Assembly: GCA_031261285.1 (NCBI GenBank)
Contig: JAISKM010000087.1
Location: forward strand, 4,516 to 68,515
Length of the DNA stretch: 64,000 bases
Origin: Candidatus Symbiothrix sp.
Lineage (GTDB): Bacteria > Bacteroidota > Bacteroidia > Bacteroidales > Azobacteroidaceae
Reading direction: 5' to 3'
Positions 18,256-52,005 of the stretch are shown in pieces. The notes beneath the pieces were generated by a model, which saw nothing but the letters and a program-made list of their open reading frames with translations, was not told the origin of the DNA and did not search any database. Both the position numbers and the translations under genes were made by a program. Every line of letters starts with the position of its first letter. Position 1 is the first letter of the stretch.

Positions 18256-18435
18256 AGCTGGCAGGGCGGTTATTACACAACAACCATTAACGGCAAAGGC
18301 GAGCCCACGTTGAAAGATATTTTGCAAGTAGCATCGGACGCAGAAATTTCCGTTAAAAAAGCCAATGAAATCATCGAATCGGTCGTTGAAACATGCCGTT
18401 CGGCAAAAAACATACAGATATATCTAAAATTTTAG
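18256..18435 (+). pseudogene. HipA-family C-terminal remnant
   Basis: YTTTINGKGEPTLKDILQVASDAEISVKKANEIIESV; no start codon. Confidence 0.55.
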
Positions 18436-18476
18436 AATTATTTGGAGAATAATACAAATATATCTATATTTGTAGC

Positions 18477-18779
18477 ATGAACATGAATCGGCAAAATAAA
18501 TTATACGAGCAATCGGACAGTGAGATTATCCAACAAATTGGAAAAAATTATCGTCTATATCGCAAGCGGATGGGTTTTACTCAAAAAGAAGTCGCCAATC
18601 AGTCGGGATTAAGCGTTTTTACGATTAGCTCGTTTGAAAGCGGTGCTGCGACCGGTATTACATTTGCATCGTTCGTGAAACTCTTACGTGCAATTAACTG
18701 CTTAGACGAGATTGAAAAACTGTTGCCTGAACTGCCGGCAAGCCCGCGAGCCTTGTTTTTGAAACAACATGGAAACTAA
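18477..18779 (+). CDS. XRE HTH antitoxin (HipB-like)
   Basis: FTQKEVANQSGLSVFTISSFESG; overlaps hipA start; -7 box at 18465-18472. Confidence 0.85.
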   Translation: MNMNRQNKLYEQSDSEIIQQIGKNYRLYRKRMGFTQKEVANQSGLSVFTISSFESGAATGITFASFVKLLRAINCLDEIEKLLPELPASPRALFLKQHGN

Positions 18780-20022
18780 TACAGTAAAAGTAGAACTCTG
18801 GGGAATGACGGTGGGCTATCTCTCGTGGGATAGCAAACAAACTGTTGCTGTTTTCGAGTATGAACCGGCATTTTTGAAACAAAGCTTAGATATAGCTCCA
18901 TTGACCATGTCTATTTGTGCACCTCGCAGCGAAAAACAAATACCTTGGACGGGTAATAAAGATAAACTCTATCAAGGATTACCTCCGGCAATTGCCGATT
19001 CGTTGCCCGACAAGTGGGGTAATTCAATTTTTAAAGCGTGGTTGCGAGATAATCATATTTCCACAAGTAAAGCAACTCCGGTCGACCAATTGTCGTTTAT
19101 TGGAAGTCGGGCTATGGGAGCATTAGAATATAAGCCTGCACAGAAAATAGGAGGTAGTACGGTGTTTTCTGTGGATGTTCAGCATCTTTACGATTTTGCC
19201 AAACAAGTGTTAAATGAACAGCAAACTACCGTACTGAATGCTGAAAATTCAATTTTGTGGCAAGACTTAATTAAAATCAGTTCGTCTCCCGGAGGGAAAC
19301 GACCCAAAGCTATTGTTGCTATTAGTTCAACGACTAAAGAGGTTATTTCCGGTCAGGGAGACATCCCGGATGGTTTTGAGCATTATATATTAAAATACGA
19401 TGACAATTCGGTCTATCCGTTTACCAAATTAGAATATATCTACTACCGTATGGCTTTGGATGCCGGAATCACGATGATGCCTTCGGAATTGCTTGATTAT
19501 GGGGATGCTACACACTTTTTGACACGCCGGTTTGATCGCATTGGAAATCAGCGAATACACGTTCAGACATTGGCTGCTATGGCACCGGAGGCGACTGCTT
19601 ACGAAGATATTTTTGCGGTTATTCGTCAGTTGAATTTGCCTTATGAAGACAGTCGGCAACAGTATTTGCGCATGGTTTTCAATGTGATTGCTCGCAATGT
19701 GGATGATCATTCAAAAAATTTTGCTTTTTGCATGACCCCTGACGGCGTTTGGAGATTGTCTCCCGCTTACGATTTGACCTATAGTGTGGACAATTCAGCA
19801 CCTGCTTATTCAAATAGACATTCTTTGACTGTGCATGGGAAAAATGAAACAATTACTCGGGCTGATTTGGAGATAGTGGCGCAAGAAAATGCCATTAAGG
19901 ATTATAAAAATTTGATTGATAATGTTTTACGAGCAGTTGATAAGTTTAGTGAATATGCCAATGAACTGGCTATTGATCAGCGATTAATAGAGACTATTCA
20001 GAACGATTTTGTAAAAATATAA
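18769..20022 (+). CDS. hipA: HipA-family kinase toxin
   Basis: SPGGKRPKA, RRFDR, NVDDHSKNF and LSPAYDL motifs. Confidence 0.92.
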   Translation: METNTVKVELWGMTVGYLSWDSKQTVAVFEYEPAFLKQSLDIAPLTMSICAPRSEKQIPWTGNKDKLYQGLPPAIADSLPDKWGNSIFKAWLRDNHISTSKATPVDQLSFIGSRAMGALEYKPAQKIGGSTVFSVDVQHLYDFAKQVLNEQQTTVLNAENSILWQDLIKISSSPGGKRPKAIVAISSTTKEVISGQGDIPDGFEHYILKYDDNSVYPFTKLEYIYYRMALDAGITMMPSELLDYGDATHFLTRRFDRIGNQRIHVQTLAAMAPEATAYEDIFAVIRQLNLPYEDSRQQYLRMVFNVIARNVDDHSKNFAFCMTPDGVWRLSPAYDLTYSVDNSAPAYSNRHSLTVHGKNETITRADLEIVAQENAIKDYKNLIDNVLRAVDKFSEYANELAIDQRLIETIQNDFVKI

Positions 20023-20138
20023 TCCGTACGGTCAGATATTGACAGAAGTTCAGAAACAAATTATACAAAATATAATAGACAATCCTAAAATATCAAGAAA
20101 CGAATTGTCCAATTTTGAAATAGTTAAAACACATCAAA

Positions 20139-20231
20139 ATGATGCAAGGAGCCAGAATAATTCAGTTACCAAAAATATTAGATAAACGAGGTAATTTATC
20201 TTTTATTGAAAGCGAATTATTATGTTTGTGA
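20139..20231 (+). pseudogene. 5' stub of FdtA/WxcM-like sugar isomerase
   Basis: MMQGARIIQLPKILDKRGNLSFIES then stop inside a duplicated attatgtttgtgaaa. Confidence 0.6.
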
Positions 20232-20408
20232 AAAATTATGTTTGTGAAACATAATAAATTAAAATAATAAAATTTCATCCATTAGCCGATGTGCAATCGG
20301 AAAAGATGAAAAAGCAATGATCGAATCAGACGTTGAAATGTGCCGGGTAGCAAATAAATTGAATTATAAGATAGGGTGAAATTTCTTGAGTTTACAAAAA
20401 AAAAATAA

Positions 20409-21139
20409 ATGCAAACTGAAACACAATACATAGAATTTAAATCGGGTTTTAATGAAGATGTCATTGAAACGTTGGTCGCTTTTGCTAACAGCCGTATGAT
20501 ATTCAAATCAAAATTTTTGACAAGGAAATTGCAATTTATAATCCTGGAAAACTATCGGGCAACCTAACCTTTGAAGATCTGAAAACAGATAATTATCAGG
20601 CGTATGCAAGGAATAAACTGCTCGCCGAAGCATTTTATCTTACAGGTGATATAGAAAAATACGGAAGCGGTTTTCGCCGCATCAGAGAACATCTTGAAGT
20701 ATATCCAACAATGAAAACCGAATTTAAGAAAGTCCCTAATGGATTGCTTTTTACTTATTTGTACGTTGTACAAAAAAATTCGACATTTTTTCCCTACTAT
20801 ACCCCTGAAATGCTTGATGATGACACAAGAAAAGGAGTGTTGAAAGAGAACGATACTCCAGATACAGAACAAGTCAGGGCGGAAGTTACAGGACAAGTTA
20901 CAGGACAAGTTACAGGACAAGTAGAAAAATTACTTTTAATACTCAAAAATCAAGAACTTTCCGTAAAAGAAATGATGGAGTATTTGTTATTAAGTGGTAG
21001 AGATAATTTTTTGACTTTATACTTACAGCCTGCAATAGAACAGGGTTTTGTAGCAATGAAATATCCACAAAGTCCCAACCACCCCAAGCAACGCTATTGC
21101 TTGACGGAAAAAGGGAAAAGTATAATTACTGGAAAATGA
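20409..21139 (+). pseudogene. AlbA_2/HATPase_c_4/wHTH protein with internal deletion
   Basis: MQTETQYIEFKSGFNEDVIETLVAFANS joined near 20490 to frame-shifted DIQIKIFD...RNKLLAEAFY...IEKYGSGF; GQVT x3 repeat; PQSPNHPKQRY end. Confidence 0.7.
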
Positions 21140-21150
21140 AAAAAGAATAA

Positions 21151-22695
21151 ATGTTAGAACCACAAAATAATCATAGCAATAACAAACGCATAGCGAAAAA
21201 CACGTTATTTCTTTATTTTCGTATGCTATTTATGATGGCGGTAACTCTTTACACTTCCCGTATTGTATTGGCTACGTTAGGAATTGAAGATTATGGCATT
21301 TACAATGTGGTTGGTGGCGTTGTTATCATGTTTTCATTTATAAATAGTGCGATGTCTACAGCCACACAGCGGTATTTGAGCTATGAATTAGGTACCAACA
21401 ATTTGGACAGGTTAAAAACTGTTTTTAGCATTAGTATTATTATTCATTTCGCTATTGCGTTCATCGTATTGATTTTGGCAGAAACTGTAGGGTTATGGTT
21501 TTTAGAAAACAAATTGGTAATACCGGAGAATCGGATGGATGCCGCCTTTTGGGTCTATCAAATATCTATTGTTTCGTGTATGATAAGCATTGTTAGTTTG
21601 CCTTACAATGCTGCGATTATTGCACGTGAACGGATGAGTGCCTTTGCTTATATTTCAATTTTTGAGGTAGTTGGCAAGTTGCTTTTAGTTTATCTGTTAG
21701 TGTTAATTGCTTCTGATAAACTGATTTTTTATGCTATATTCGTCTGCATAGTTCAAATTATCATTCGGATTATTTATGGTTGGTATTGTAAGAAAAACTT
21801 TCAGGAAACGAGTTTCTCTTTTGTATGGGATAAGAAACTTTTTAGCACTATGATGTCTTTTAGTGGATGGAACATGTTTGGATGCATTGCCGGTGTTTGT
21901 CTTACGCAGGGAACAGATATTTTGTTAAATTTGTTTTTTGGTCCTGTCGTCAATGCCGCAAAGGGAATAAGCACCCAAGTTCAAGCAGCTATCAATAGTT
22001 TTTGTGCTAATTTTCAAACTGCCATCAATCCTCAAATTGTTAAAAGTTATGCCTCAAATAATATGACATACGTTCACAATTTGCTTTTTACCAGTTCCCG
22101 CCTATCCTTTTATTTGGTACTACTGTTTTCTATACCCATTATGTTGGAAACCAATCAAATACTTCATTTGTGGCTCAAAGACGTCCCCAATTATTCGGCA
22201 TTATTTGTACAGTTATCCATGGTAATATCACTTTCAGGTGCATTGTCAAATACACTTATTATGGCAAATGGGGCAACAGGGGATGTTAGAAAGTTGATGA
22301 CGACAGTGGGGTTACTGTTTTGGTCGGTGATTCCATTGTCTTATGTTTGGCTAAAACTTGGTGGAGAGCCTCCTGTCGTATTTTTTGTACAGATAGGTTT
22401 GCTGATGATTGCACATATCATAAGGCTCAAAATAGTTGGTAAACAGTTAGCATTTTCTTTTCTTGATTATTGTAGAAAAGTGTTGTTCCAAATAGTTTTG
22501 GTTTTAATAATTTGCTTTATTCCTCCTTATGTCTTGAAAACTAATATGGATGAATCTTGGTTACGTCTTGTTTTGGTAACGATTATATCTACTATTTCGG
22601 TCTTAGTTACAGTCTTTTTTGTTGGTATAACCACTGAAGAACGAAATCTGGCTAAGAACTTCATTGTAAATAAATTCAAAAAAATCAGAAAATGA
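21151..22695 (+). CDS. wzx: Polysaccharide flippase
   Basis: NKRIAKNTLFLYFRM start, about 12-14 TM segments. Confidence 0.9.
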   Translation: MLEPQNNHSNNKRIAKNTLFLYFRMLFMMAVTLYTSRIVLATLGIEDYGIYNVVGGVVIMFSFINSAMSTATQRYLSYELGTNNLDRLKTVFSISIIIHFAIAFIVLILAETVGLWFLENKLVIPENRMDAAFWVYQISIVSCMISIVSLPYNAAIIARERMSAFAYISIFEVVGKLLLVYLLVLIASDKLIFYAIFVCIVQIIIRIIYGWYCKKNFQETSFSFVWDKKLFSTMMSFSGWNMFGCIAGVCLTQGTDILLNLFFGPVVNAAKGISTQVQAAINSFCANFQTAINPQIVKSYASNNMTYVHNLLFTSSRLSFYLVLLFSIPIMLETNQILHLWLKDVPNYSALFVQLSMVISLSGALSNTLIMANGATGDVRKLMTTVGLLFWSVIPLSYVWLKLGGEPPVVFFVQIGLLMIAHIIRLKIVGKQLAFSFLDYCRKVLFQIVLVLIICFIPPYVLKTNMDESWLRLVLVTIISTISVLVTVFFVGITTEERNLAKNFIVNKFKKIRK

Positions 22696-23507
22696 AAAAA
22701 ACATTAAGACGTATTAAGGGAATTATTGCTTTTTGTATAATTAGTGCTGACGGCTTTCCGAGACTTGATATTATAAAAACCATTTATTATAATTTTCGGC
22801 TTTTCCCATTTTCTATTGCAAAAAAACTACCTATATTTATTCATAGTGGAGTGAAAATTTATGATATAGGAAAGGTTGTGATTGATGGGAAAGTCACAAG
22901 AGGTATGATTTCCATTGGAAATTATAATATGAGAGCACAAGGAGCTACAAAAATTCGGAATAGAGGTGAAATCATTTTTAAAGGGAAAGTTTTTATATTT
23001 GGAGGCGTTAATTTAATGAATTCAGGAAAAATTGTATTTGAAGGTGATGACCTCTTGGGTGAAAATACAGTTGTCATAATTAGCAGACAATTAACTATTG
23101 GAAAATGTACACGCATTGCTTCTTTATGCTATATTATGGATTCGGATGCTCATTATATGGTAAATGTTCAAACTGGAGAAATAAAGGATAATACAAAAGA
23201 GATAATCATAGGAAAATGTAATTGGCTTGCTAATGGAACTGTAGTGAAAAAAGGAACTCATACGCCCGATTATACAATTGTAGCATCTGCCAATGCTCTT
23301 TTATCAAAAGATTATACCAACCTTCCTCCCTATAGTATTATTGGAGGGATGCCTGCAAAATTGATTGCTTCGGGCTATCGTCGCATTTATAACAAGATAG
23401 AAGAAAGTCGATTAGAAAAAATCTTTAATGAAACTAAGATACAAGCAGTAACGATTGATTTAGACAATATAGATATTGATTCTTATTGTACAGAAAATGC
23501 AATATGA
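22692..23507 (+). CDS. Hexapeptide-repeat (LbH) acyltransferase-like protein
   Basis: IMDSDAH, IIIGKCNW and IIGGMPAK motifs. Confidence 0.7.
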   Translation: MKKTLRRIKGIIAFCIISADGFPRLDIIKTIYYNFRLFPFSIAKKLPIFIHSGVKIYDIGKVVIDGKVTRGMISIGNYNMRAQGATKIRNRGEIIFKGKVFIFGGVNLMNSGKIVFEGDDLLGENTVVIISRQLTIGKCTRIASLCYIMDSDAHYMVNVQTGEIKDNTKEIIIGKCNWLANGTVVKKGTHTPDYTIVASANALLSKDYTNLPPYSIIGGMPAKLIASGYRRIYNKIEESRLEKIFNETKIQAVTIDLDNIDIDSYCTENAI

Positions 23508-23543
23508 AGCATAATTTATTTGTGAAAACATAGAAGAACAGAA

Positions 23544-24422
23544 ATGAATGTTGTAATTATTTTTAATGGCTTGGGAAATCAAATGTCTCAATACGCATTT
23601 TTCTTAAGGAAGAAAAGTATAGATCCATCTACTATATGCATATATGATAAAAGGACATCTGAGCAACATTTTGGATTTGAATTAAAACGTGCGTTCAACA
23701 TTAATTGTAATAATTACGGGTTTAAATATAAAATGTTGTATTTTTTGTATAGTACGTCCTTTCTCCAGAGGCGACCAATAAGTAAGTTGTTATCTCTTAT
23801 TGGTATTAGATTCATAGTAGAGCGAAAGGACGGTTATTATGTTGAAGCGAATCTTTTAAATCGGAGAGGGATAAATTTTTATTATGCTGGCTGGCATTCG
23901 GAAAAGTATTTTTTGCCAATTGAAGAAGAAATTATAAGAACATTTAAATTTAATATAGATAACAAAAACAATACTCCTCAATTCAAATTTTATGAAAATG
24001 AAATCAAACAGAATAATAATAGTGTTTCAATTCATATTAGAAGAGGAGATTATTTAACCACTGGTGGATATTATCAATTTACAGGTGTTGCAACATTAGA
24101 GTATTATCAAAAGGCGATTGCCTATATTGAAAGTAAAATTGATAATCCCCAATATTTCGTATTTTCTGATGATTTGAATTGGTGTAAAGAAAACTTGACT
24201 CTATGTTCCGCGACGTTTGTTGATTGCAATACTGGTGAAAATTCATGGAAAGATATGTATTTGATGAGTGTGTGCAAACACAATATTAATGCTAATAGTA
24301 CATTCAGTTGGTGGGCAGCATGGTTAAATCCCAATAAAAATAAAATCACCATTGTTCCGAAAGAATTTATACGTAATGTTATTCCAAAAGATTTTTATCC
24401 TGAAAATTGGGTGAAAATATAA
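23544..24422 (+). CDS. GT11 alpha-1,2-fucosyltransferase
   Basis: GLGNQM, SIHIRRGDY, FSDD and NSTFSWWAAWL motifs. Confidence 0.9.
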   Translation: MNVVIIFNGLGNQMSQYAFFLRKKSIDPSTICIYDKRTSEQHFGFELKRAFNINCNNYGFKYKMLYFLYSTSFLQRRPISKLLSLIGIRFIVERKDGYYVEANLLNRRGINFYYAGWHSEKYFLPIEEEIIRTFKFNIDNKNNTPQFKFYENEIKQNNNSVSIHIRRGDYLTTGGYYQFTGVATLEYYQKAIAYIESKIDNPQYFVFSDDLNWCKENLTLCSATFVDCNTGENSWKDMYLMSVCKHNINANSTFSWWAAWLNPNKNKITIVPKEFIRNVIPKDFYPENWVKI

Positions 24423-24605
24423 ATTGACACTTCTTGGAAAAATCTATGCATATATTGATCTTTACTCCCCTCTTTTTTGATACCTATCGGTCATTTTTGA
24501 CTTTTTAAGGGGTGACTATTTAAATAATAGCATTCTAATATGCTGATAATCATCATATTAAGAGCTTAATCTATTGCACACAAAATATTTTTGATTTTGA
24601 AAATT

Positions 24606-25553
24606 ATGAAACAGGTAAAATTTATTTTTGCAGCATTTTTGTTACTGTCAACATCTTTTATTTATAGCTGTGAGCAAGCGAAAAACTCATTTTTAAAAGT
24701 TGGCGTTTTTGGTGGTTCTGTAAGTGTTTATACCGAGTCAGAAACGGCAAAAAATGTATGGAGAGATAGTTTGAATATCACAGTAGAATCTTGTGGCGTG
24801 TCGGGTGGCGGATTTAGTTCGTTGACAACAAACAATGTTCCGATGCAGATAAGGCAGGCAAAAACTTTTGATATCTATATTCTTTGGTGCTCAACAAACG
24901 ATGTCGCGACTTCTACTGTGGGTGAGGTAAATTCTGATGATTTATCCACACAGAATGGAGGTTTGCGCAAAAGTATTGAATTGATCAAGCAAAAAAATGA
25001 TAAAGCACTTATTCTTTTGTTTACTTCATTACCACGCTTTGACCAAGATATTTATTATAATAGGATGCAATCTTTTGTGGATGGACAAATAGCAGTTTGC
25101 CAAGCAAATCAAATTCCATACTTAGACCAATGGTCACTTTGTGGGTTTGATAAAAATAATTTTACCCCGTATTATCTTGACGATAAAACGCATTTAACTA
25201 ATGCCGGTTATGCACATATTGCTCAGATGCAAATGGAATTTATTCGTGAAAACATAGAAAAATATTGGGATACATCAGCAATAATAGATACTCCTGTAGT
25301 GGCTTCTTGTTTAAAAATTCAATACAATCCCGTGACTGACAATTTAGTTTTTGAACCCAATGGAGCCAATACACAAACTATTGGAGTTCAAATTATTGAC
25401 ATTGCCGGGCAATTAATATTTTCTATGAATGATTTTGTTCTTCAGAGAACAGTCGCAAGAACCATTTCTGTCAATGGAATCGCTAAAGGCATTTATCTAC
25501 TTGTTGCTCAAACAGAAGAAGAGCGATTGGTTAAGAAGTTTATGAAAAAATAA
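24606..25553 (+). CDS. SGNH/GDSL hydrolase with T9SS-like C-terminal domain
   Basis: FGGSVS, STND and DKTHL motifs; tail GIYLLVAQTEEERLVKKFMKK. Confidence 0.7.
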   Translation: MKQVKFIFAAFLLLSTSFIYSCEQAKNSFLKVGVFGGSVSVYTESETAKNVWRDSLNITVESCGVSGGGFSSLTTNNVPMQIRQAKTFDIYILWCSTNDVATSTVGEVNSDDLSTQNGGLRKSIELIKQKNDKALILLFTSLPRFDQDIYYNRMQSFVDGQIAVCQANQIPYLDQWSLCGFDKNNFTPYYLDDKTHLTNAGYAHIAQMQMEFIRENIEKYWDTSAIIDTPVVASCLKIQYNPVTDNLVFEPNGANTQTIGVQIIDIAGQLIFSMNDFVLQRTVARTISVNGIAKGIYLLVAQTEEERLVKKFMKK

Positions 25554-25564
25554 AATTTAAACAG

Positions 25565-26653: not shown

Positions 26654-26663
26654 ATAATAAAAA

Positions 26664-27698: not shown

Positions 27699-27720
27699 TT
27701 TAAAATAAGAAAATATCAAG

Positions 27721-28365
27721 TTGAAAATATTATTACATAAAATTATCCATCTTATAGTTCTATTGATAAGCCATATTGGGCTTGTCCTGTTTCCTTATTC
27801 TGTTGCAGAAAGAATCAAATTATTTAAAAGGCAGATATATACATATTGGTTAGCCCCTAATTTTAGGAAATTTGGGAAACTGTCTATGATACATTATCCA
27901 GTTTGCTTGCTTGGTTGTAAATATATATCAATTGGCGAAAAAGTTGGGATAGGGACACGAAGTGTTATTACAGCTTGGGATAATTATGAAGGAGATACTT
28001 TTTCTCCTGAAATTACGATTGGTAATAATGTTTGGATCGGTGATGAAAGTCATATTACTGTAATTAATTCAGTTAAAATAGGCAATAATGTTCTGATGGG
28101 AAAAAAAATTACTATAACAGATAATTCTCATGGTAATAATACTTTAGAGGAAGTCAATACAGCCCCTAATAAACGACAACTCTATTCAAAAGGCCCAGTC
28201 ATCATTGAAGATAATGTTTGGATTGGTGATAAAGCAACGATTTTACCAGGAGTTCATATTGGATATGGTGCGGTCATTGCTGCGAATACTGTTGTTACTA
28301 AAGATGTACCCACTATGGCCATAGTGGGAGGGAATCCAGCAAGATTAATAAAAATTATTGAATAA
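27721..28365 (+). CDS. LbH O-acetyltransferase
   Basis: [17 protein letters not shown] and VGGNPAR motifs. Confidence 0.88.
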
Positions 28366-28368
28366 AAT

Positions 28369-42358: not shown

Positions 42359-42381
42359 TATAAAAATTAAAAATAATCGAC

Positions 42382-43521: not shown

Positions 43522-43590
43522 TATACGCACACTTTAAAGTGCTATTTTTGATATAAATTGCACAATATTTAATACAATTTTTTTATACCT

Positions 43591-44934
43591 GTGATGCAAA
43601 CACCCGGAGTTTATAGCGTTGAAAAGAACGCATTCCCTAATTCTGTTGTAGAAGTGGCAACCGCCGTTCCTGCCTTCATCGGTTATACCGAAAAAGCCCT
43701 CAATGGGGACAAATCCTTGCTCAATAAGCCTTTCCGAATTACTTCCATAGCGGAATTTCGTGCCTGTTTTGGCGAAGCGCCTCGACCTAAATTTAGCTTC
43801 GAAGCGTTGGCAGATGGAATTTATGTCCTCAAACGGGTCGATTCTTTTACACTGTATTACAACATGTTGCTGTTTTATGCGAACGGTGGTGGTCCCTGCT
43901 ACATTGTTTCTGTAGGCGACTATACGAGCGATGACATTGACAAGGCAAAATTGCAAGCCGGTATTGACACACTTGTAAAAGAGCAGGAGCCGACTTTATT
44001 AGTGATACCCGAAGCGGTGAACCTCAAGGCAAGTAAGGATTGTTACGCTTTACAACGAGCGATGTTAGCGCATTGCGGAAGTGTCATGAAAAATCGTTTC
44101 GCCATATTGGATATTTACGATGGAGCAAAAGATAGCAAAGGTCATCAGGGAGATGTGATAAACGCATTTCGCGAACAGGTAGGAAATGAGTTTCTTGATT
44201 ATGGTGCAGCTTATTATCCCTGGATCAATACTTCTATCGTGCAGGAAAAGGAACTCAGTTTTCAGAATTTGGATATTGTCACGCAGAATGGTTTGTTGAC
44301 GGATGAATTAAGTCCGCTTTATGCTCGAATTATCGGAGAGATGCGTTTTATGCTCAATTTGCTTCCCATATCAGCCGCCATGGCAGGTGTTTACGCCTTG
44401 ACTGACAGTACAAAAGGCGTATGGAAAGCTCCAACTAATGTCGGTATTGCGAAGGCTGTTAGTCCGGCGGTCAGTATTTTGCACGAAGCGCAAGAAGAGT
44501 TGAATGTGTCTGTCAGCGGCAAATCTGTCAATGTCATCCGTTCTTTTATCAGTGAAGGAATAATAATTGGGGGAGCGCGCACTTTGGACGGCAACTCCTT
44601 GAATTGGAGGTATATAAATGTACGCCGCACGATGATTATGTTGGAAGAATCGATTAAGAACGCTTTGAAAGCATACGTTTTTGAGCCGAATGTTGCCACT
44701 ACATGGGTAAACGTGAAAGGTATGATTTCCAACTTTCTTAATGGAATATGGAAGCGTGGAGGGTTAGCAGGTGATAAGCCTGACAATGCGTATCGCGTAC
44801 ACGTGGGGTTGGGTGAAACAATGACATCCACAGACTATCTCGAAGGCATCATGCGTATTACTGTCTTGGTGGCACTTGTTCGTCCAGCAGAATTTATCGA
44901 GATTACCTTCCAACAACAAATGCAGAAAAGTTAA
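43591..44934 (+). CDS. Contractile tail sheath protein (eCIS Afp2/3-like), orphan
   Basis: TPGVYSVEKNAFPNSVVEVATAVPAFIGYTE, GAAYYPW, WRYINVRR and RPAEFIEITFQQ motifs. Confidence 0.88.
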   Translation: MMQTPGVYSVEKNAFPNSVVEVATAVPAFIGYTEKALNGDKSLLNKPFRITSIAEFRACFGEAPRPKFSFEALADGIYVLKRVDSFTLYYNMLLFYANGGGPCYIVSVGDYTSDDIDKAKLQAGIDTLVKEQEPTLLVIPEAVNLKASKDCYALQRAMLAHCGSVMKNRFAILDIYDGAKDSKGHQGDVINAFREQVGNEFLDYGAAYYPWINTSIVQEKELSFQNLDIVTQNGLLTDELSPLYARIIGEMRFMLNLLPISAAMAGVYALTDSTKGVWKAPTNVGIAKAVSPAVSILHEAQEELNVSVSGKSVNVIRSFISEGIIIGGARTLDGNSLNWRYINVRRTMIMLEESIKNALKAYVFEPNVATTWVNVKGMISNFLNGIWKRGGLAGDKPDNAYRVHVGLGETMTSTDYLEGIMRITVLVALVRPAEFIEITFQQQMQKS

Positions 44935-44988
44935 CGTAATTACAAATTAAAAATTTGTATAATTCAAATAAAAACACTATCTTTGTAC

Positions 44989-45273
44989 ATGCCACGCTCA
45001 CAAGACATAAAAGATTTTATCCGCGAACACCAAGCTCTGTTTTGGTATTCGCCCGAAGACAAGTGCGAAACGGTAAGCGACGAACTGCTGGTGGAAACGA
45101 TATTGAATTACGGCGATATGTCTGCCGTAGTAAAATTATTTCGACTTATGGGAATAAAAAAAGTGGCAAAAATATATTTTTCCTCTATCAATCGTAGTGA
45201 AAGAAGTAAAAATAATTACCATGAATTGACATCAAATTATTTCACTTTATTATTTAATCGCTATGCACATTGA
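44989..45273 (+). CDS. Small protein, putative antitoxin partner of the AbiEii-like gene
   Basis: LFWYS...LVETILNYGD motif; overlaps the downstream gene; -7 box at 44978-44985. Confidence 0.6.
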   Translation: MPRSQDIKDFIREHQALFWYSPEDKCETVSDELLVETILNYGDMSAVVKLFRLMGIKKVAKIYFSSINRSERSKNNYHELTSNYFTLLFNRYAH

Positions 45274-45703
45274 GATATTATCAGATAAACAGCAAGAATT
45301 GTTGTCGTTTGTTTCACAATTCAAACGTAGTTTTTATTTGGTTGGAGGCACGTATCCGGTAACTCATCCTGTTAAATTGGATACCATCATTTCGATGCCA
45401 TCCTTGTTGTCGCTGGCGGCAATGAAGGCGTTTGCTTTGGGCAGGCGAACCAAATGGAAAGATTATGTTGATCTTTATTTTTTGTTGAGAGATTCTTTTA
45501 CGGTACAGGAAATTTCTGATGAAGCCGAAAAGATATTTGGAGATCTATTTTCTGAAAAATTGTTTAGGCAACAATTAGCTTTTCACGCAGACATTGATTA
45601 TCGTGAGCAAGTGGATTTCTTGCCGGGCTTTGAAGTCGGTGCAGAAGAAGTAAAAGATTTTTTGATTGATAAGTCGTTAGAACTAAATCTTGGTGTTGCA
45701 TAA
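45263..45703 (+). pseudogene. AbiEii-type nucleotidyltransferase with in-frame internal deletion
   Basis: FYLVGGT directly followed by YPVTHPVK; HRxSxDxD region absent; MKAFALGRR..KDYVDLY retained. Confidence 0.7.
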
Positions 45704-45722
45704 TTTTAAAATAGAAAAAATA

Positions 45723-45788
45723 TAACAACAGTATTTTCAATGGTTATCGACCAAAAAACCACTTAACAACAGTATTTTCAATGGTTAT
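45723..45788. repeat. 25-bp direct repeat x2, operator-like
   Basis: taacaacagtattttcaatggttat at 45723 and 45764, upstream of -7 box 45816-45823. Confidence 0.8.
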
Positions 45789-45844
45789 TTTATTGTTTTA
45801 TCCAAGAAAAATGACTACCTTTGCAGCATGAAAAACAAAGAAAC

Positions 45845-46156
45845 ATGGATTGGCAAAATTTAAGTAATGCAGCTGCAATAGCAGAAATCGGAAAGCGATT
45901 AAAAGCTTACCGCCTGAAGAAAAAACTGACGCAAAAAGATTTGGCTGAACGAGCTGGAATCAGTTTGTTTACAGTGGCGCAAATGGAAAAAGGAAGACCC
46001 GTTTCCATCACTATGTTGCTCCCTGTGCTACGAGTACTGCGTTTGTTGGATAATTTGGAGCAACTTGTGCCCGAAATTGGCATAAGCCCAATAGAACTGA
46101 TGAAACTGAAAGGCAAAACGCCCCAACGAATAAAACCACCTAAAGAGAAATTGTGA
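45845..46156 (+). CDS. XRE HTH antitoxin (HipB-like)
   Basis: LTQKDLAERAGISLFTVAQMEKG; similar to 18477 protein. Confidence 0.85.
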   Translation: MDWQNLSNAAAIAEIGKRLKAYRLKKKLTQKDLAERAGISLFTVAQMEKGRPVSITMLLPVLRVLRLLDNLEQLVPEIGISPIELMKLKGKTPQRIKPPKEKL

Positions 46157-46161
46157 GTTAA

Positions 46162-46236
46162 GTTCGACCCCTTTGGGGTCGCATATTTATAGGGGAGCAT
46201 ATCATCTATAAACATCCTGACCCCGTAGGGGTCGAC
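46162..46236. repeat. Paired REP palindromes between hipB and hipA
   Basis: cgacccctttggggtcg and gaccccgtaggggtc. Confidence 0.75.
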
Positions 46237-46249
46237 TAATTAATAATTG

Positions 46250-47542
46250 ATGGAAACGGTATTAAAAGTGGTTTTGTGGGGCAAGGACGTGGCTGCGGTG
46301 GTTTGGGACAAAGCGCGCACTTGCGCCACGCTGGAGTTTTACGATTCGTTTGTCAACGAGCGATTGAACGTTGCGCCGCTCGCTATGCCGTTACACGATA
46401 TTGTGAGGGGGGATAAGGTGTTTACTTTCCCTTCATTGAGCGAAAAAACATTCAAGGGATTACCGGGATTGTTAGCGGATTCACTTCCTGACGATTATGG
46501 TAATAAAATTCTGGACGAGTGGTTTGCCAGCCAAGGGTTGAGTTTTGCCGAATTTACTCCCATTGACCGTTTGTGTTATGTGGGTAAACGTGGGATGGGT
46601 GCTTTAGAATACGAGCCTGCCAATAAAGATACCGCTTTGAATGAGTCTGCAAAAATTGAAATCGAACAACTAACGACATTGGCAAGAGAAGTGCTGAATC
46701 AACGCGAAGCCTTTTGCGCCGATTTGCTCAAAGACGATAAACCCGTTTTAGATATATTAAAAGTAGGCACTTCCGCCGGCGGTGCTAAGCCCAAAGCCAT
46801 TATTGCCATCAATGAACAGACCGGAGAAATCCGTTCGGGACAAGTGAAAGCCCCCGATGGTTTTACCTATTGGCTACTCAAATTTGACGGAGTAGAAGAT
46901 CACAAATTAAGAGATAACCCTTTGGGAATCGGACGAATAGAATATGCCTACTACCAAATGGCAACTGATTGCGGCATTGAAATGACAGATTCTAAATTGC
47001 TGGTCGAAGGCGATTATGCCCATTTTATGACCAAACGTTTTGATCGGACGGATTTAGGCGAAAAACGGCATACGCAAACGCTCTGTGCCATTGCCCATTT
47101 CGATCGCGACGATCGCCATTCCTACGAACAAGCGTTTCAAGTGATGCGTCAACTGCATCTGCCGTATCCCGAAATGGAACAAATGTATCGTCGAATGGTC
47201 TTCAATGTCATCGCTCGCAACCACGATGATCACACCAAAAACCACTCATTCATCATGAGCAAAACAGGCGAATGGTCATTAGCTCCCGCCTACGATTTGT
47301 GCTACTCCTATTCGCCGTCAGGCAAGTGGACAAATCAGCACCAGTTGTCGCTCAACAACAAACGCGACAATTTCACGCAAGAAGACCTCCTTTCGGTGGC
47401 AAAAAACATGGACATAAAAAATGCCTCCGCAATTGTTCAACAAGTCACGGAAGTGGTCGCTCATTGGGAAACTTACGCACAAAAAGCAGATGTGAAAAAA
47501 GAGGCTATTCAACAAATAAAAGCAACGTTAAGACTATTTTAA
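46250..47542 (+). CDS. hipA: HipA-family kinase toxin
   Basis: SAGGAKPKA, KRFDR, NHDDHTKN and LAPAYDL motifs. Confidence 0.92.
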   Translation: METVLKVVLWGKDVAAVVWDKARTCATLEFYDSFVNERLNVAPLAMPLHDIVRGDKVFTFPSLSEKTFKGLPGLLADSLPDDYGNKILDEWFASQGLSFAEFTPIDRLCYVGKRGMGALEYEPANKDTALNESAKIEIEQLTTLAREVLNQREAFCADLLKDDKPVLDILKVGTSAGGAKPKAIIAINEQTGEIRSGQVKAPDGFTYWLLKFDGVEDHKLRDNPLGIGRIEYAYYQMATDCGIEMTDSKLLVEGDYAHFMTKRFDRTDLGEKRHTQTLCAIAHFDRDDRHSYEQAFQVMRQLHLPYPEMEQMYRRMVFNVIARNHDDHTKNHSFIMSKTGEWSLAPAYDLCYSYSPSGKWTNQHQLSLNNKRDNFTQEDLLSVAKNMDIKNASAIVQQVTEVVAHWETYAQKADVKKEAIQQIKATLRLF

Positions 47543-47621
47543 AATGAAATATAGTGCACTTTTTGCTTGTTTTATAAAATAAAAGCAGTATCTTTGTGCC
47601 GAAAGAGTAATTTATTGCACT

Positions 47622-47828
47622 ATGAAATTTGCTAAACAGATTAAAGAAAGACGTTCTGTGCTCGGAATCAACCAACAAGATTTGGCTGATATTTCCGGTG
47701 TGGGCTTGCGCACGATTAAGCAAATAGAGGTAGGAAAAGGGAATCCGTCTATTAAAACACTTTCGGCAATTTTAGATGTGTTGGGAATGGAATTAGTCAC
47801 AAAAATTAAAACAACATCTGAATTATGA
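47622..47828 (+). CDS. HTH antitoxin (HipB-like)
   Basis: INQQDLADISGVGLRTIKQIEVG; -7 box at 47589-47596. Confidence 0.85.
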   Translation: MKFAKQIKERRSVLGINQQDLADISGVGLRTIKQIEVGKGNPSIKTLSAILDVLGMELVTKIKTTSEL

Positions 47829-48154
47829 AGCAAGCTCAAGTGTATATGAATAAGCTATTGGCTGGAACGTTGAGAAAACAGGATGATGGAACTTATTTAT
47901 TTCGTTATAACGATGTTTATTTTGTAAACCCGGATTTGTCTGCCATAAGTTTAACATTACCTAAGACCAAACAGGAGTATCATTCCAGTGTGCTATTTCC
48001 TTTTTTCTTTAATATGCTTTCGGAAGGGGTGAATAAACAGGTGCAGTTACGGCAATTCAAATTAGACGAAGATGATTATTTTGGCTTGCTTTTGGCTACA
48101 GCAGGCAATGATACGATTGGAGCCATTACCGTCAAAGAATTGAAAGAAGCATGA
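47825..48154 (+). CDS. Stand-alone HipA N-terminal domain protein (HipS-like)
   Basis: ISLTLP, LFPFFFNMLSEG and DTIGAITV motifs. Confidence 0.82.
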   Translation: MKQAQVYMNKLLAGTLRKQDDGTYLFRYNDVYFVNPDLSAISLTLPKTKQEYHSSVLFPFFFNMLSEGVNKQVQLRQFKLDEDDYFGLLLATAGNDTIGAITVKELKEA

Positions 48155-49116
48155 TTGCCGCACCTGATACATATACTCCCATAACGCTCAAAAGAGTGTT
48201 TGACACTAAAAAAGTCAGCCCTCTGCTTGCTTTTTCCAATGTGGCAAGTCAGCGCAAAGTCATTGATGAAAATATTGGCAAAATCTCCATCTCCGGCGTG
48301 CAGGAAAAATTGTCTGTGATTATTGACCATGAGAAAATCATTTTAACGCCCGAAGGTGTGCAGGGGACGCATATTATTAAAGCTGCACCTGATTATAAAC
48401 GATTGAAAAATCGCAATCAATTACCTGCCAATGAACACCTTACGATGCAAATTGCGCAACAGGTTTATGGACTTTCGGTAGCTGAAAATGCCATGGTTTT
48501 TTTCCGAAATGGCGAAGCCGCGTATATCACGAAACGATTTGATATTGACAAAAATAAGTGTAAAATCAAGCAAGAGGATTTTGCTTCTTTGTCACAAAAA
48601 ACCAAAGAAACGGATGGCGACAATTTCAAATATACAGGCGATTATGTCACTGCCGGACAACTTATTAAACAGTTTGTAGCGGCTTGGCAAATTGAAACTG
48701 TCAAGTATTTTCGCCTGATAGTGTTCAACTATCTTTTTGCCAATGGCGATGCCCACTTAAAGAATTTTTCTTTACAGCAAACGACGACCGGCGATTATCT
48801 TTTAACGCCTGCTTATGATTTGTTGAATACTTCATTACACGTTAATGATGAAGATTTTGCGTTAAGCGGAGGGTTGTTTGATAAACAACATTGTTCTGAA
48901 ATATATCTGCAAACGTCGCATCCATGTCAGGAAGATTTTATGACGTTTGGGACGTTGTTGGAGATTCCGAAAGTAGTCATAAACAAGACGCTCAATAAAT
49001 TTACAACCCCACAAGGTTTAGTAACAGAATTAACGGAAAGATCATTCCTTAATGAGCAATTAAAACGCATGTACTTGAGAAGCTATCAAGAGCGATTGAG
49101 CCGGTTACAACGCTAA
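48151..49116 (+). CDS. HipA C-terminal kinase (HipT-like)
   Basis: SISGVQEK, ANEHLTMQ, KRFD, NGDAHLKNFS and LTPAYDL motifs. Confidence 0.85.
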   Translation: MIAAPDTYTPITLKRVFDTKKVSPLLAFSNVASQRKVIDENIGKISISGVQEKLSVIIDHEKIILTPEGVQGTHIIKAAPDYKRLKNRNQLPANEHLTMQIAQQVYGLSVAENAMVFFRNGEAAYITKRFDIDKNKCKIKQEDFASLSQKTKETDGDNFKYTGDYVTAGQLIKQFVAAWQIETVKYFRLIVFNYLFANGDAHLKNFSLQQTTTGDYLLTPAYDLLNTSLHVNDEDFALSGGLFDKQHCSEIYLQTSHPCQEDFMTFGTLLEIPKVVINKTLNKFTTPQGLVTELTERSFLNEQLKRMYLRSYQERLSRLQR

Positions 49117-49143: not shown

Positions 49144-50160
49144 ATGGAAAATAATTTATTGCAATATTTATTAGTAACAATCATCCTCTTCGCAGGGATG
49201 CTCCTGTACTTCAAACTTGCTGATAAATACAACATCATCGACAAGCCCAACGAACGGAGTTCGCACAACTATATCACGTTGCGCGGCGGCGGCATCGTGT
49301 TTTGGCTGGCAGGCGTGCTTTATGCCGCATTTAACTTGCCCGAAAGCCTCTATTTTCTCATTGGGCTGACGCTCATTTGCGGTGTCAGTTTTTGGGACGA
49401 TGTGTCGTCGTTGCCTAATAAAGTCCGCATAGTGATTCATTTTCTGTCTATCTCGCTGGTATTCTATGGGTTAGGACTGTTTGTATTGTTGCCTTGGTGG
49501 CTGATAGTGATCGCCTACATCTTTTTCGTCGGCATCATGAATGCCTACAATTTTATGGATGGTATCAATGGCATGATCGGATTGTACAGTTTGGTGGTGT
49601 TAATCGCGCTCCAGTATGTTAATTATCAGGAGGCATTTCATTGCGGGCACCCACAAGGGATGCCCCTACGCCTGCAATCCCCTGCCATTAATCCTGATTT
49701 CATTAATTACGCCATCCTCGCTTGCATCGTCTTTCTCTTTTTCAATTTCCGAAAGCGTGCCAAATGTTTTGCCGGCGATATAGGTGCTTTGGGTCTCGCT
49801 TTTTGGATGGTTACTTTGTTGATACAGTTGATGTTAGCAACCAATTCTGTCATTTGGATTTTGTTTTTGGCAGTTTACGGCGTCGACACTGTTTGCACGA
49901 TTTTACATCGTTTATACTTGAAACAGAATATTTTTCAAGCGCACCGTTTGCATTTTTATCAGATATTAGTCAACGAACGGAAACAGTCGCACCTGACAGT
50001 GGCTGCGGGTTATGCAGGCGTTCAGTTACTCATTTGTGGTATCGTCATTTATGCGTATGAATGCGGTAACGAAATCGAACAATGGTGCATTGGAGCAGCG
50101 ATTATTATGGTATTATTGCTTGTTTATTTATTGAAATTCAAAAAAACAGATGAAAAATAG
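49144..50160 (+). CDS. MraY/WecA-family undecaprenyl-phosphate sugar-1-phosphate transferase
   Basis: DKPNERSSH, FWDD, NAYNFMDGING and FAGDIG motifs. Confidence 0.9.
   Translation: MENNLLQYLLVTIILFAGMLLYFKLADKYNIIDKPNERSSHNYITLRGGGIVFWLAGVLYAAFNLPESLYFLIGLTLICGVSFWDDVSSLPNKVRIVIHFLSISLVFYGLGLFVLLPWWLIVIAYIFFVGIMNAYNFMDGINGMIGLYSLVVLIALQYVNYQEAFHCGHPQGMPLRLQSPAINPDFINYAILACIVFLFFNFRKRAKCFAGDIGALGLAFWMVTLLIQLMLATNSVIWILFLAVYGVDTVCTILHRLYLKQNIFQAHRLHFYQILVNERKQSHLTVAAGYAGVQLLICGIVIYAYECGNEIEQWCIGAAIIMVLLLVYLLKFKKTDEK
49643..49669 (-). repeat. In-frame GTAG-type REP in the WecA-like gene (opposite orientation)
   Basis: Reverse complement gtaggggcatcccttgtgggtgcccgc; encodes CGHPQGMPL. Confidence 0.82.
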
Positions 50161-51337
50161 CCGTATCTATCTCTCTTTGGCACATATAGGTGGTCGCGAA
50201 CAAGAATTTATTCAACAAGCGTTCGACACCAATTGGGTCGTACCTATGGGACCCAATGTGAGCGGTTTTGAACAGGATTTAGTGCAGTTTTTGGGCAACG
50301 ACGCACAAGTCTCGGCGTTGTCTTCGGGTACTGCTGCCTTGCATCTTGGACTGATTTTGTTGGATGTAAAACCCGACGATGAGGTTCTTTGTCAAAGTTT
50401 CACTTTCGCAGCCTCCGCCAATCCAATCGTTTATTTGGGTGCTAAACCCGTATTCGTGGACAGTGAACGCGATACCTGGAATCTATCGCCCGAACACTTG
50501 GAACGCGCCATTCAAGACCGAATCGCCAAAGGCAAAACCCCTAAAGCAATCATCGTTGTGCATGCCTATGGCATGCCGGCGAAAATGGATGAAATCCGAA
50601 CGATTGCCAATCGCCACAAAATACCTCTGTTAGAAGATGCAGCGTCGGCTTTAGGCTCGACTTACAAGGGTATTCATTGCGGCACCTTGGGCGAATTGGC
50701 AGCCTTGTCGTTCAATGGCAATAAAATTATTACCACATCGGGTGGTGGTGCGTTGGTGGCTACCCATCAGAGGATTGCGTGTAAAATTGTAGGGCAATGC
50801 CCGCAACGCAATGACGGCAATCTAATTAAAAAAGCACGCTTTCTGGCAACTCAAGCGCGGGATGCCGCACCGCATTACCAACATTCTCAAATTGGCTACA
50901 ACTACCGCATGAGCAATATAGTGGCAGGAATCGGACGTGGACAAATGTTAGTGCTGCCCGAACGAATTGCCCAACGCCGGGCAAATAACCAATTCTATCG
51001 AAAGCATTTAGCCGGCATTGAGGGCATCACATTCCAAACAGAACCCAATTCAGACTTTTATTCCAACTATTGGCTGACATCCATTCTGATTGACCCCGAA
51101 AAAACAAACGGCATCACTCGCGAAACCCTGCGCCTCGCCTTAGAAGCCGCCAACATCGAATCACGCCCCCTCTGGAAACCGATGCACCTGCAACCCATCT
51201 TTGCCGATTGCCCCTTTTACGGCGACGGTACCGGCGAAGACCTCTTCAACAAAGGTCTCTGCCTCCCCTCCGGCTCTATCCTCACCGAACAAGATTTGCA
51301 ACGTGTAGTAAAAGTAATCAAACAAATACTTGTATAA
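50150..51337 (+). CDS. DegT-family aminotransferase (PglE/EpsN-like)
   Basis: LSSGTAALHL, EDAASALG, SFNGNKIITTSGGG and GYNYRMSN motifs. Confidence 0.9.
   Translation: MKNSRIYLSLAHIGGREQEFIQQAFDTNWVVPMGPNVSGFEQDLVQFLGNDAQVSALSSGTAALHLGLILLDVKPDDEVLCQSFTFAASANPIVYLGAKPVFVDSERDTWNLSPEHLERAIQDRIAKGKTPKAIIVVHAYGMPAKMDEIRTIANRHKIPLLEDAASALGSTYKGIHCGTLGELAALSFNGNKIITTSGGGALVATHQRIACKIVGQCPQRNDGNLIKKARFLATQARDAAPHYQHSQIGYNYRMSNIVAGIGRGQMLVLPERIAQRRANNQFYRKHLAGIEGITFQTEPNSDFYSNYWLTSILIDPEKTNGITRETLRLALEAANIESRPLWKPMHLQPIFADCPFYGDGTGEDLFNKGLCLPSGSILTEQDLQRVVKVIKQILV
50772..50815 (+). repeat. In-frame CGTC-type REP in the PglE-like gene
   Basis: ggattgcg...cgcaatgac with an inner insert; encodes RIACKIVGQCPQRND. 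Confidence 0.7.
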
Positions 51338-51377
51338 TTCAAAAAAAACATATACCTTTGCGAAAAAGAAATAGGTT

Positions 51378-51674
51378 ATGAAACAAGCAACAGTTAATAA
51401 ATTGCAGAATTTTTTTACCATGCAGCCTGTTGAAAAAGCATGGGTGTTTGGTTCTTATTCGCGAGGAGAAGAAACGCGCAAAAGTGATATTGATATTCTT
51501 GTGCGATTTAACCGCGAAGCTCATATTTCTTTATTTGATTATGTAAGAATTATGCACTCGCTTGAGGATGTATTGCACAAAAAAGTAGATTTGGTACAGG
51601 AAGGGAGTCTGAAAAATTTTGCTCAAGAATCGGTAGACCGTGATAAAATTTTAGTTTATGAGAGAGAAAATTAG
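51378..51674 (+). CDS. MNT (minimal nucleotidyltransferase) antitoxin
   Basis: FGSYSRGE...SDIDILV and KKVDLV motifs; -7 box at 51353-51360. Confidence 0.88.
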   Translation: MKQATVNKLQNFFTMQPVEKAWVFGSYSRGEETRKSDIDILVRFNREAHISLFDYVRIMHSLEDVLHKKVDLVQEGSLKNFAQESVDRDKILVYEREN

Positions 51675-52005
51675 AGACAAAGGGCGATTAGAGCATATTC
51701 TTGAGGCGATTGAAAACGTTTTTGAATTTATGGCAGGAGTGAGTTTTGAAGAATATCAGTCAAATAAAATGCTGCGTTTTGCCGTTGTCAAAAATTTGGA
51801 AATTATAGGAGAAGCAAGTTATCATTTGACCCCTAATTTGAAAGATAACTCTCCTGAAATTGAATGGAGGGTTATCATAGGTATGCGTCATGTTTTGGTA
51901 CATGATTATTTTCTTATCGGAGATGAGGTGGTTTGGAATGTTGTTCAAAAAGACCTCCTACCGCTAAAAGAAAATATAAGCCTTTTGTTGGATACAATAG
52001 ATTAA
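51658..52005 (+). CDS. HEPN/DUF86 (HepT-like) ribonuclease toxin
   Basis: LEIIGEA and MRHVLVHDY (R-X4-H-X-Y) motifs. Confidence 0.88.
   Translation: MREKIRDKGRLEHILEAIENVFEFMAGVSFEEYQSNKMLRFAVVKNLEIIGEASYHLTPNLKDNSPEIEWRVIIGMRHVLVHDYFLIGDEVVWNVVQKDLLPLKENISLLLDTID

Follow-up and report, generated by a model that had tools for sequence, protein, structure and literature searches.

A surface-glycan operon of a termite-gut Bacteroidales as a probable landing zone for toxin–antitoxin and candidate defence cassettes

Why should an operon for surface-polysaccharide synthesis be threaded with toxin–antitoxin (TA) genes and other genes that resemble anti-phage defences? The question is raised by a stretch of 64,000 nucleotides (nt) from Candidatus Symbiothrix sp. 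(the window; positions 4516–68515 of contig C33, GenBank JAISKM010000087.1), a member of a termite-gut Bacteroidales genus whose genome under study here, G000, amounts to 2.83 Mb in 171 contigs and is an estimated 98% complete. A preliminary description of this DNA had proposed an array of co-oriented, self-promoted cassettes in which phage-receptor glycan genes and abortive or addiction modules travel together, and in which internal promoters re-drive the glycan genes downstream. We assigned gene families with Pfam and NCBIfam and defence candidates with PADLOC models, and compared the locus with those of relatives, which are metagenome bins of termite-gut Bacteroidia. The answer that we consider probable is that a Wzx/Wzy glycan locus has turned into a landing and exchange zone, without an integrase of its own, for small selfish or immune modules.

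Cassettes, junctions and scars

The glycan locus occupies about 45 kb (7226–52613 of the window, to which all coordinates refer), and is the one large glycan locus of G000. All its real genes lie on the + strand, as do the features given below unless stated otherwise, and GC skew is positive across it. Pfam and NCBIfam assignments describe a Wzx/Wzy-type surface-glycan locus in three parts: a 5' module, a low-GC centre and a 3' module. Cargo and its scars fill ~16 kb, or about one third of the locus, and the cargo is lodged at six gene junctions. None of it has a proven role in sugar synthesis, and in the reading that we favour it probably takes no part in it. Every family named in the preliminary description is present and on the + strand, but several of the items, among them KilA-N, AlbA_2 and the AbiE-like ORF, are wrecks. 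Two kinds of unit can be told apart: units that run from operator and promoter through one or more open reading frames (ORFs) to a stop (HipBA twice, HipBST, MNT-HepT and two AAA ATPases), and bare ORFs that depend on transcription running through the operon (YhcG, KilA-N and probably a sheath gene).

Such genes are concentrated here. The locus holds three of the four HipA_C genes of G000, one of its two HepT genes, none of its three ParE genes and two of its 11–15 DUF4143 genes. Four of the nine HipA, HepT and ParE toxin-family genes thus sit in 1.2% of the genome (binomial P = 2.5e-6), a TA density above the genome average rather than equal to it. This is the clustering seen in defence islands and hotspots, and the PADLOC candidates PDC-S01, PDC-S02, PDC-S09 and PDC-S27 match here. 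Across the genus, any HipA is found in 19 of 41 genomes, mostly in one to three copies where present.

All nine TAnnTTTG boxes that had been cited as internal promoters are present on the + strand (18465, 39357, 39973, 42292, 43543, 44978, 45816, 47589 and 51353). The motif itself is barely more frequent in the window than chance would have it (96 found, 77 +/- 9 expected). Its placement is another matter: a box lies 5–90 nt upstream of 9/9 cargo units and of 1/27 glycan genes (Fisher P = 1e-7), and a TTG precedes the box by 19–20 nt in six of the nine. Neither YhcG nor KilA-N has its own box, and that of the sheath gene is uncertain. Operator-like repeats adjoin the boxes of the DUF4143 ATPase, the ATPase_2-DUF234 gene, hipB2 and an ATPase fragment. 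A scan with a sigma-70 promoter model was also made; the model is uninformative for Bacteroidetes promoters. Both hipB1 and an ORF of 94 amino acids (aa) have an in-frame ATG 3–4 nt after their boxes (within 18465–18480 and 44978–44992, respectively), which suggests that their mRNAs may be leaderless or nearly so.

Comparison with relatives shows discrete units whose identity differs at the same junctions, and the description of discrete, mostly self-promoted cassettes was borne out. Four junctions are each empty or differently filled in relatives, with the variable content between conserved flanks that marks a hotspot (G004, G014, G002 and G005). Firstly, between the DegT aminotransferase and WbaP-like transferase genes, G000 and G005 carry MNT-HepT (with a barstar gene upstream in G005) and G014 carries a Uma2 nuclease gene, while in G004 the two genes are adjacent, 56 nt apart, and have their own TAtcTTTG box; this empty junction (locus L009, G004:C33, 10975–11040) reads TTG-19 nt-TAtcTTTG. 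Secondly, 6.9 kb of cargo fills the junction between the 309-aa epimerase and WecA genes in G000, where the adjacent orthologues of G002 (72% and 68% aa identity) are separated by a 116-nt gap. Thirdly, the junction between the acetyltransferase and the 381-aa epimerase holds YhcG in G000 and a DUF4143 ATPase with two AlbA_2 genes in G005, the closest relative; in both, the epimerase follows the same short duplicate of the acetyltransferase 3' end. Fourthly, the site of KilA-N is a 5-nt spacer in G005, without KilA-N.

Three cargo blocks are flanked by diverged duplicates of glycan-gene ends (repeats D1, D2 and D10), which points to recombination scars. In the first, a 33-codon 5' stub of the acetyltransferase gene (34084–34185), which matches the first part of the full gene (35213–35304) at 88% identity, is followed by the 3' remnant of a glycosyltransferase gene (34328–34415); this remnant is 83% identical in nucleotides to G005:C39, and its source gene directly precedes the acetyltransferase in G005. 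A stub with an adjoining foreign glycosyltransferase end is what would be expected had a foreign glycan stretch been joined by one homologous and one illegitimate end. In the second, the segment 39056–39257 holds a 5' stub of the 309-aa epimerase gene (39066–39186, 121 nt, 88% identical to 41363–41483) and a second short stub or boundary motif (39217–39257, matching 41321–41361). The epimerase stub carries nine synonymous and four non-synonymous changes, and so would have diverged as a working allele. In the third, YhcG is followed by 36 nt (36895–36930) that duplicate the acetyltransferase 3' end. A separate contig of G005 (C319, locus L064) carries YhcG (96% aa identity), an acetyltransferase 3' stub and ~85 nt of an epimerase 5' end, and after these an AAA_14 ATPase gene. 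Here too a 5' stub and cargo make up a scar, and the full epimerase of G005 lies on a different contig.

The clearest record of movement is that of the ATPase_2-DUF234 cassette (39924–41322), which comprises two TGTAAC-N4-GTTACA palindromes, the TAtcTTTG box at 39973 and a 439-aa ORF (40001–41320; ATPase_2 and DUF234 in Pfam, PADLOC candidate PDC-S27). The unit recurs in G046 and G002 at 90% nt and 93% aa identity and with identical sharp ends, as against 71–74% identity to the same two genomes for purL, the gene directly upstream of the locus head at 7226. A TGTAA pentamer stands at both ends of the unit. In G002 the cassette directly follows a NusG-like (UpxY-type) gene that heads a glycan operon, and copies with 92–93% aa identity in four other genomes all lie in glycan loci, at differing positions. 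In G046, HipBA2, the DUF4143 ATPase and ATPase_2-DUF234 stand together in a different order, upstream of Wzi/WbaP genes, and cassette homology begins at the operator/promoter and stops at the stop codon. These identities show recent movement between species, of the ATPase cassettes at least. More distant homologues (63–84% aa identity) come from bins that carry the names Paceibacterota, Saccharibacteria, Treponema and Endomicrobiellum (L068, L071, L081 and L143), and reflect either cross-phylum transfer or contamination during binning.

The modules of the locus

The two HipBA pairs and the HipBST-like trio had been placed correctly, as Pfam and PDB matches on the + strand confirm. HipBA cassette 1 (18465–20022) has its TAtaTTTG box at 18465, followed by genes (18477–20022) for HipB (100 aa) and HipA (417 aa, catalytic motif DDHSKN); cassette 2 (45722–47542) has direct-repeat operators, a TAccTTTG box at 45816, HipB and a 431-aa HipA (DDHTKN). 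Both pairs possess the HTH_3, Couple_hipA and HipA_C domains and the DxHxKN loop of HipBA type II TA genes. The HipBST cassette (47589–49116) has a TAtcTTTG box and three genes (47622–49116), with overlapping stop and start codons, for an HTH protein (68 aa), HipS (109 aa) and HipT (321 aa, DAHLKN); the order hipB-hipS-hipT, a HipS equivalent to the N-subdomain of HipA and a HipT without that subdomain are the features of the tripartite TA system. Best PDB matches are HipS(Lp) for HipS (E 3e-17) and HipT(Lp) for HipT (E 3e-26), with the HipBST chains of E. coli O127 also among the best. Just before hipB1, a 45-aa C-terminal remnant (18259–18432) of a fourth HipA matches the HipA C-termini of loci L022, L027 and L023 (57–64% aa identity, E 1e-13 to 1e-16).

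A leaderless reading of hipB2 was rejected: an in-frame ATG lies at 45845, downstream of the listed start at 45821. The hipB2 and hipA2 genes are separated by a palindromic insert of ~80 nt resembling repetitive extragenic palindrome (REP) elements (46160–46240; CGACCCC...GGGGTCG, twice), which may uncouple expression of the antitoxin from that of the toxin; in the G046 orthologue, hipB and hipA are ~10 nt apart.

Three ATPase(-nuclease) genes had been claimed, of which two stand as intact cassettes and the third is an internally deleted fragment. Beside ATPase_2-DUF234, the intact one is the AAA_14-DUF4143 cassette (42292–43521), with a TAccTTTG box, a tandem 28-nt palindromic repeat and a 379-aa ORF (42382–43521; AAA_14 and DUF4143 in Pfam, PADLOC candidate PDC-S01). 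The repeat (42300–42358) is a perfect tandem and separates the -7 box from the ATPase start; in G046 (reverse complement of L020, ~3400–3450) the palindrome is kept with both arms changed (CTGCAAAATTACATGATAATTTGCAG vs CTTTAAAATTACATGATATTTTAAAG), so that it looks like a conserved operator. The fragment (39262–39968) consists of three tandem iterons of 22–23 nt, the TAtcTTTG box at 39357 and a 193-aa DUF4143-type ORF (39387–39968), which corresponds to a 422-aa protein with an internal deletion; with its iterons it is 87–88% identical in nucleotides to the 422-aa gene of G002:C223.

The pair described as MNT-HEPN is likewise present (51378–52005; Pfam Polbeta/NTP_transf_2 and HepT-like), MNT being a minimal nucleotidyltransferase and the match to PDC-S09. 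Its cassette (51338–52011) begins with a promoter-like TTG-19 nt-TAccTTTG site, and its genes have the marks of type VII TA pairs: the GSx10DxD motif of MNT (GSYSRGEETRKSDID), the Rx4H motif of HepT (RHVLVH) and a 17-nt gene overlap. The HepT stop lies 6 nt ahead of the WbaP-like ATG. Relatives of the pair in six genomes (55–85% aa identity) each have their own box and no gap to the next gene, at sites between PhoU and PhoB/PhoR, beside a hexokinase gene and in other non-glycan operons; another lies between a TonB-dependent receptor (SusC)/DUF4249 pair and NamZ.

The remaining cargo is promoterless, orphaned or decayed. YhcG, a PD-(D/E)XK nuclease and PADLOC candidate PDC-S02 (35797–36930 with the 36-nt acetyltransferase copy; Pfam match 35785–36891), has no promoter and is inserted exactly at an ATGA stop/start overlap of the neighbouring genes; supposed YhcG debris at 34193–34390 was rejected, with no tblastn or Pfam support. 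The promoterless KilA-N gene (34416–35205, KilA-N from 34437 in Pfam) is frameshifted and reads into the acetyltransferase ORF, and a 363-aa ORF listed at 34709–35800 was accordingly discarded as a read-in artefact. A Schlafen-type gene with AlbA_2, HATPase_c_4 and Fic-like_C domains lies in pieces (~20100–21139, Pfam); G046 and G005 have intact AlbA_2-type versions of 463–526 aa in their glycan loci.

Two further items of cargo carry boxes. An orphan contractile-sheath gene (43543–44934, Pfam; box at 43543, ORF 43591–44934) is intact and 68% identical to 497-aa sheaths of extracellular contractile injection systems (eCIS), with in-frame deletions of 9 and 39 aa; the homology ends exactly at the ORF ends, and no other eCIS genes (tube, Pvc16, AAA, tape-measure) were detected in G000. 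The AbiE-like pair of the preliminary description (44978–45703) did not hold up as a type IV TA system: the 146-aa AbiEii-like ORF (45263–45703) covers positions 131–186 of the 238 of the AbiEii profile and lacks the catalytic DxD after GGT, and the 94-aa ORF matches no AbiEi model, with a single sub-threshold match to DUF6922. As the nucleotidyltransferase core is missing, the two are probably a degenerate pair.

The glycan genes around this cargo begin with a conserved 5' module (7226–17199, Pfam) of DegT, acetyltransferase, oxidoreductase, Wza-like exporter, Wzz, two UDP-sugar dehydrogenase and epimerase genes. Pfam found no UpxY (NusG-like)/UpxZ pair at its 5' end, among the genes from 7226, so that the head differs from that of Bacteroides-type capsular loci. 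Debris fills junction J1 (17200–18432, Pfam): LytTR and DUF2589 remnants on the minus strand, then the HipA remnant on the + strand. The low-GC centre (21151–34091, 30–35% GC) contains serotype-specific genes: Wzx-like, acetyltransferases, GT11, GDSL esterase, Glf, WbsX, GT2, Wzy and two GT4. It holds no cargo and no upstream TAnnTTTG box except one (24586), 5 nt ahead of the GDSL gene as listed; the TTG given as its start falls within the box, so the true start probably lies further downstream. The GDSL esterase (24591–25553) bears a C-terminal sorting domain of the type IX secretion system and may act as an O-acetyl esterase, either secreted or on the cell surface.

Beyond the centre come the full acetyltransferase gene (35207–35800), the 381-aa epimerase with a WaaS/CpsH-family glycosyltransferase of 329 aa (36927–39046), and the full 309-aa epimerase gene (41326–42255). 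The conserved 3' module contains a WecA-like GT4-family transferase and the DegT aminotransferase (49144–51337), and the last glycan gene encodes the WbaP-like initiating sugar transferase (52012–52613); its listed start at 51933 is wrong, as alignment with relatives places it at 52012. A strong 14-bp hairpin (52710–52741) ~100 nt past this gene is likely an operon terminator or a REP element. An Rfam search of 17000–53500 returned zero matches.

Origin and upkeep of the cargo

If the locus is a landing and exchange zone, cargo would be brought in with pieces of foreign glycan loci, as well as by horizontal transfer. One end would be joined by homologous and the other by illegitimate recombination, leaving behind a stub of the resident allele, and the duplicated gene ends would then let homologous recombination in the conserved flanks swap cargo. 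Survivors would be the co-oriented, terminator-free insertions alone, since any others would cut downstream glycan expression. TA modules would be kept by addiction and other modules possibly by an anti-phage benefit, before decaying to wreckage. Glycan loci would gather such cargo because they are frequently exchanged under phage and host selection and because insertions at their junctions are tolerated.

How closely is the cargo tied to glycan genes? The idea that the two travel together stood in part: YhcG moves with pieces of glycan genes, and copies of ATPase_2-DUF234 lie in glycan loci. The partnership is not specific, however, since relatives of MNT-HepT occupy non-glycan operons and, of 20 HipA contexts from the genus, no more than 2–3 have glycan-probe genes nearby. 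Glycan loci with co-oriented ATPase and/or Hip cassettes are found in G046, G004, G020, G015, G001 and G002. Sampled glycan loci of relatives hold 0–2 cargo genes each, and a Pfam tally of 66 unlabelled ORFs from such loci yielded glycan-enzyme families only and did not bear out a broad TA load. The link between cargo and glycan loci is statistical, not obligatory.

A first alternative is that selection preserves the receptor-glycan genes jointly with the abortive or addiction modules, as one unit in which cassette promoters relay transcription along the 45-kb operon. Cargo stops 5–35 nt ahead of the next glycan start codon, and each promoter-bearing cassette is followed, after 5–27 nt, by another cassette or by a glycan gene in the same orientation; there are no terminator-like hairpins at cargo-to-glycan junctions, and terminator-like sites overall are at chance level. 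This spacing makes read-through likely, and we infer that transcripts from cassette promoters would enter the downstream glycan genes. A relay would also accord with the own-box, no-gap layout of MNT-HepT in six other genomes, with the recurrence of cargo within glycan loci of relatives and with the lack of a UpxY-type antiterminator at the locus head, where internal promoters could matter. Yet TA promoters are normally autorepressed and the boxes here adjoin operator-like repeats, so that strong driving is unlikely; and the box at the empty DegT–WbaP junction of G004 indicates that internal promoters need not derive from cargo. Both speak against a dedicated relay role. Moreover, relatives express similar glycan modules without cargo at those junctions, the same cassettes occur in non-glycan operons, and one third of the cargo is decayed. 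We therefore regard this alternative as unlikely.

A second alternative would make the AAA ATPases and AlbA_2 regulators or accessory factors of glycan loci, for instance DNA-binding serotype switches, that are neither selfish nor immune. The bias of the ATPases towards glycan loci is real: at least two glycan-probe genes lie within 9 kb in 18 of 60 ATPase_2-DUF234 loci of Bacteroidota, each at least 9 kb long (30%, against 4.6%, or about 5%, as background in G000), where the probes are crude, the loci non-independent and the background that of one genome. Palindromic operators, C-terminal domains of winged-helix type and the G002 cassette directly after a NusG-like gene would suit regulators as well. 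Against this, the position of the ATPases within loci varies and most sampled glycan loci lack them; 70% of homologues lie away from glycan-probe genes; G000 has 11–15 DUF4143 genes for one large glycan locus; PADLOC defence-candidate models match; and the cassettes have recently passed from one species to another without the genes beside them, and truncated copies are tolerated. A regulatory role for these genes thus seems improbable to us.

A third would have an array of integron-like or other recombinase-driven origin, with an enzyme encoded elsewhere inserting promoter-to-stop units at defined sequences. Co-oriented cassettes that include TA modules with their own promoters recall chromosomal integrons, and the ends of ATPase_2-DUF234 are identical and sharp in three genomes, with TGTAA at both; this match is, however, five bases only. 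No tyrosine recombinase (Phage_integrase) is encoded on the 74-kb contig C33, all eight G000 matches being on other contigs, and no element that recurs at cassette boundaries emerged from a repeat search. No IntI or attI was found, and no attC-like repeats were found by the repeat search, which used no dedicated attC model and leaves weak sites possible. The junction duplications, furthermore, are long (36–121 nt) and diverged, not short identical cores. We hold a recombinase-driven array to be very improbable. Hardly credible is an assembly artefact that chimerically joined strain variants within a metagenome bin: G000 is a 171-contig bin and G005 has two alternative arrangements on separate contigs, but assemblers do not create 88%-identical duplicates 1–2 kb apart, and the stub-plus-cargo and cassette-in-glycan-locus layouts recur in independent assemblies, including a complete genome.

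Several points nevertheless weigh against the landing zone that we favour. Promoters, read-through and gene function are all deduced from sequence, and the recombination route is a reconstruction from scars; no donor with the exact cargo-plus-allele arrangement was found. The sharp ends of ATPase_2-DUF234 in three contexts are not evidently the product of either homologous or illegitimate recombination, and hint at an unrecognised mechanism of greater precision. PADLOC ranks the YhcG, DUF4143 and DUF234 proteins as candidates, not as validated defences. The Bacteroidota enrichment test leans on the non-independent loci and one-genome background given above, and mixtures of strains in metagenome bins could confuse some contexts, as the two arrangements of G005 on two contigs illustrate.

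Tentatively, the case may be widened: glycan operons could be a general, recombinase-free platform for TA and immune cassettes in Bacteroidota and perhaps beyond, a possibility that we put forward with some doubt. Units would slot co-directionally into junctions and be swapped between species through duplicated glycan-gene ends, ATPase_2-DUF234, the DUF4143 ATPases and AlbA_2 would be specialised to the glycan-locus niche, and the identical sharp ends of ATPase_2-DUF234 could reflect an undescribed, precise mechanism of insertion. If glycan operons are preferred homes of immune and addiction modules, variation in receptors would be linked to defence inside the cell, the two being inherited and exchanged together as packages, which would shape the spread of phage resistance in gut communities, and schemes for typing serotype loci would have to allow for non-glycan cargo. 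Junction scars offer a readable record of earlier locus exchanges, and the operator-promoter-ORF units of HipBST, MNT-HepT and the ATPases are ready-made parts for testing the candidates PDC-S01, PDC-S02 and PDC-S27.

Relation to known systems

Among the modules themselves, the HipBST cassette resembles those of E. coli O127:H6 and Legionella pneumophila (PDB 7AB3-5, 7VKB and 8EZR) in its HTH-HipS-HipT gene order and in keeping the GVQxK and DxHxKN motifs. It differs in its low sequence identity and in being lodged in a glycan operon; the target of HipT in E. coli is TrpS. Similarly, the MNT-HepT pair shares with MntA-HepT type VII pairs a minimal nucleotidyltransferase gene that overlaps the gene for the predicted HepT RNase; unlike typical pairs, this subfamily has its own Bacteroidetes-type -7 box and abuts the next gene of the host operon in every relative.

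Bacteroides capsular polysaccharide loci are headed by UpxY/UpxZ and frequently have invertible promoters. The present locus is like them in being a long single-strand glycan operon with a low-GC variable centre between conserved modules, and unlike them in having no NusG-like UpxY head, in being the sole large one in its genome and in its heavy load of cargo. Background on the Bacteroides loci is given in PMC13139388.

The small co-oriented cassettes, the TA cassettes with their own promoters, the many cassettes of unknown function and the sharing of cassettes between species are features in common with Vibrio-type integron arrays. Sedentary chromosomal integrons, such as the Vibrio superintegron, hold promoter-bearing TA cassettes. 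By contrast, no intI, attI or attC was found here, the scars are long diverged duplications, and the cassettes alternate with essential pathway genes.

Defence islands were reportedly described by Makarova and colleagues in 2011, and surveys of E. coli and Pseudomonas describe chromosomal defence hotspots, in which variable clusters of immune and TA genes lie between conserved flanks. As in defence islands, TA, nuclease and ATPase genes cluster here, the content of a fixed site changes from one relative to another, decay of copies is frequent and horizontal transfer is evident. Unlike that of defence islands, this cargo is neither one block between housekeeping genes nor on a mobile element: it is strictly co-oriented, threaded through a biosynthetic operon at six junctions and without terminators, and has left duplicated glycan-gene ends as scars. 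Within the limited literature searched, we found no paper that reports glycan operons interspersed with TA or defence cassettes in this way. The locus is best read as an integrase-less defence and TA hotspot inside an operon, for which the closest concepts are defence hotspots and TA-bearing integron arrays.

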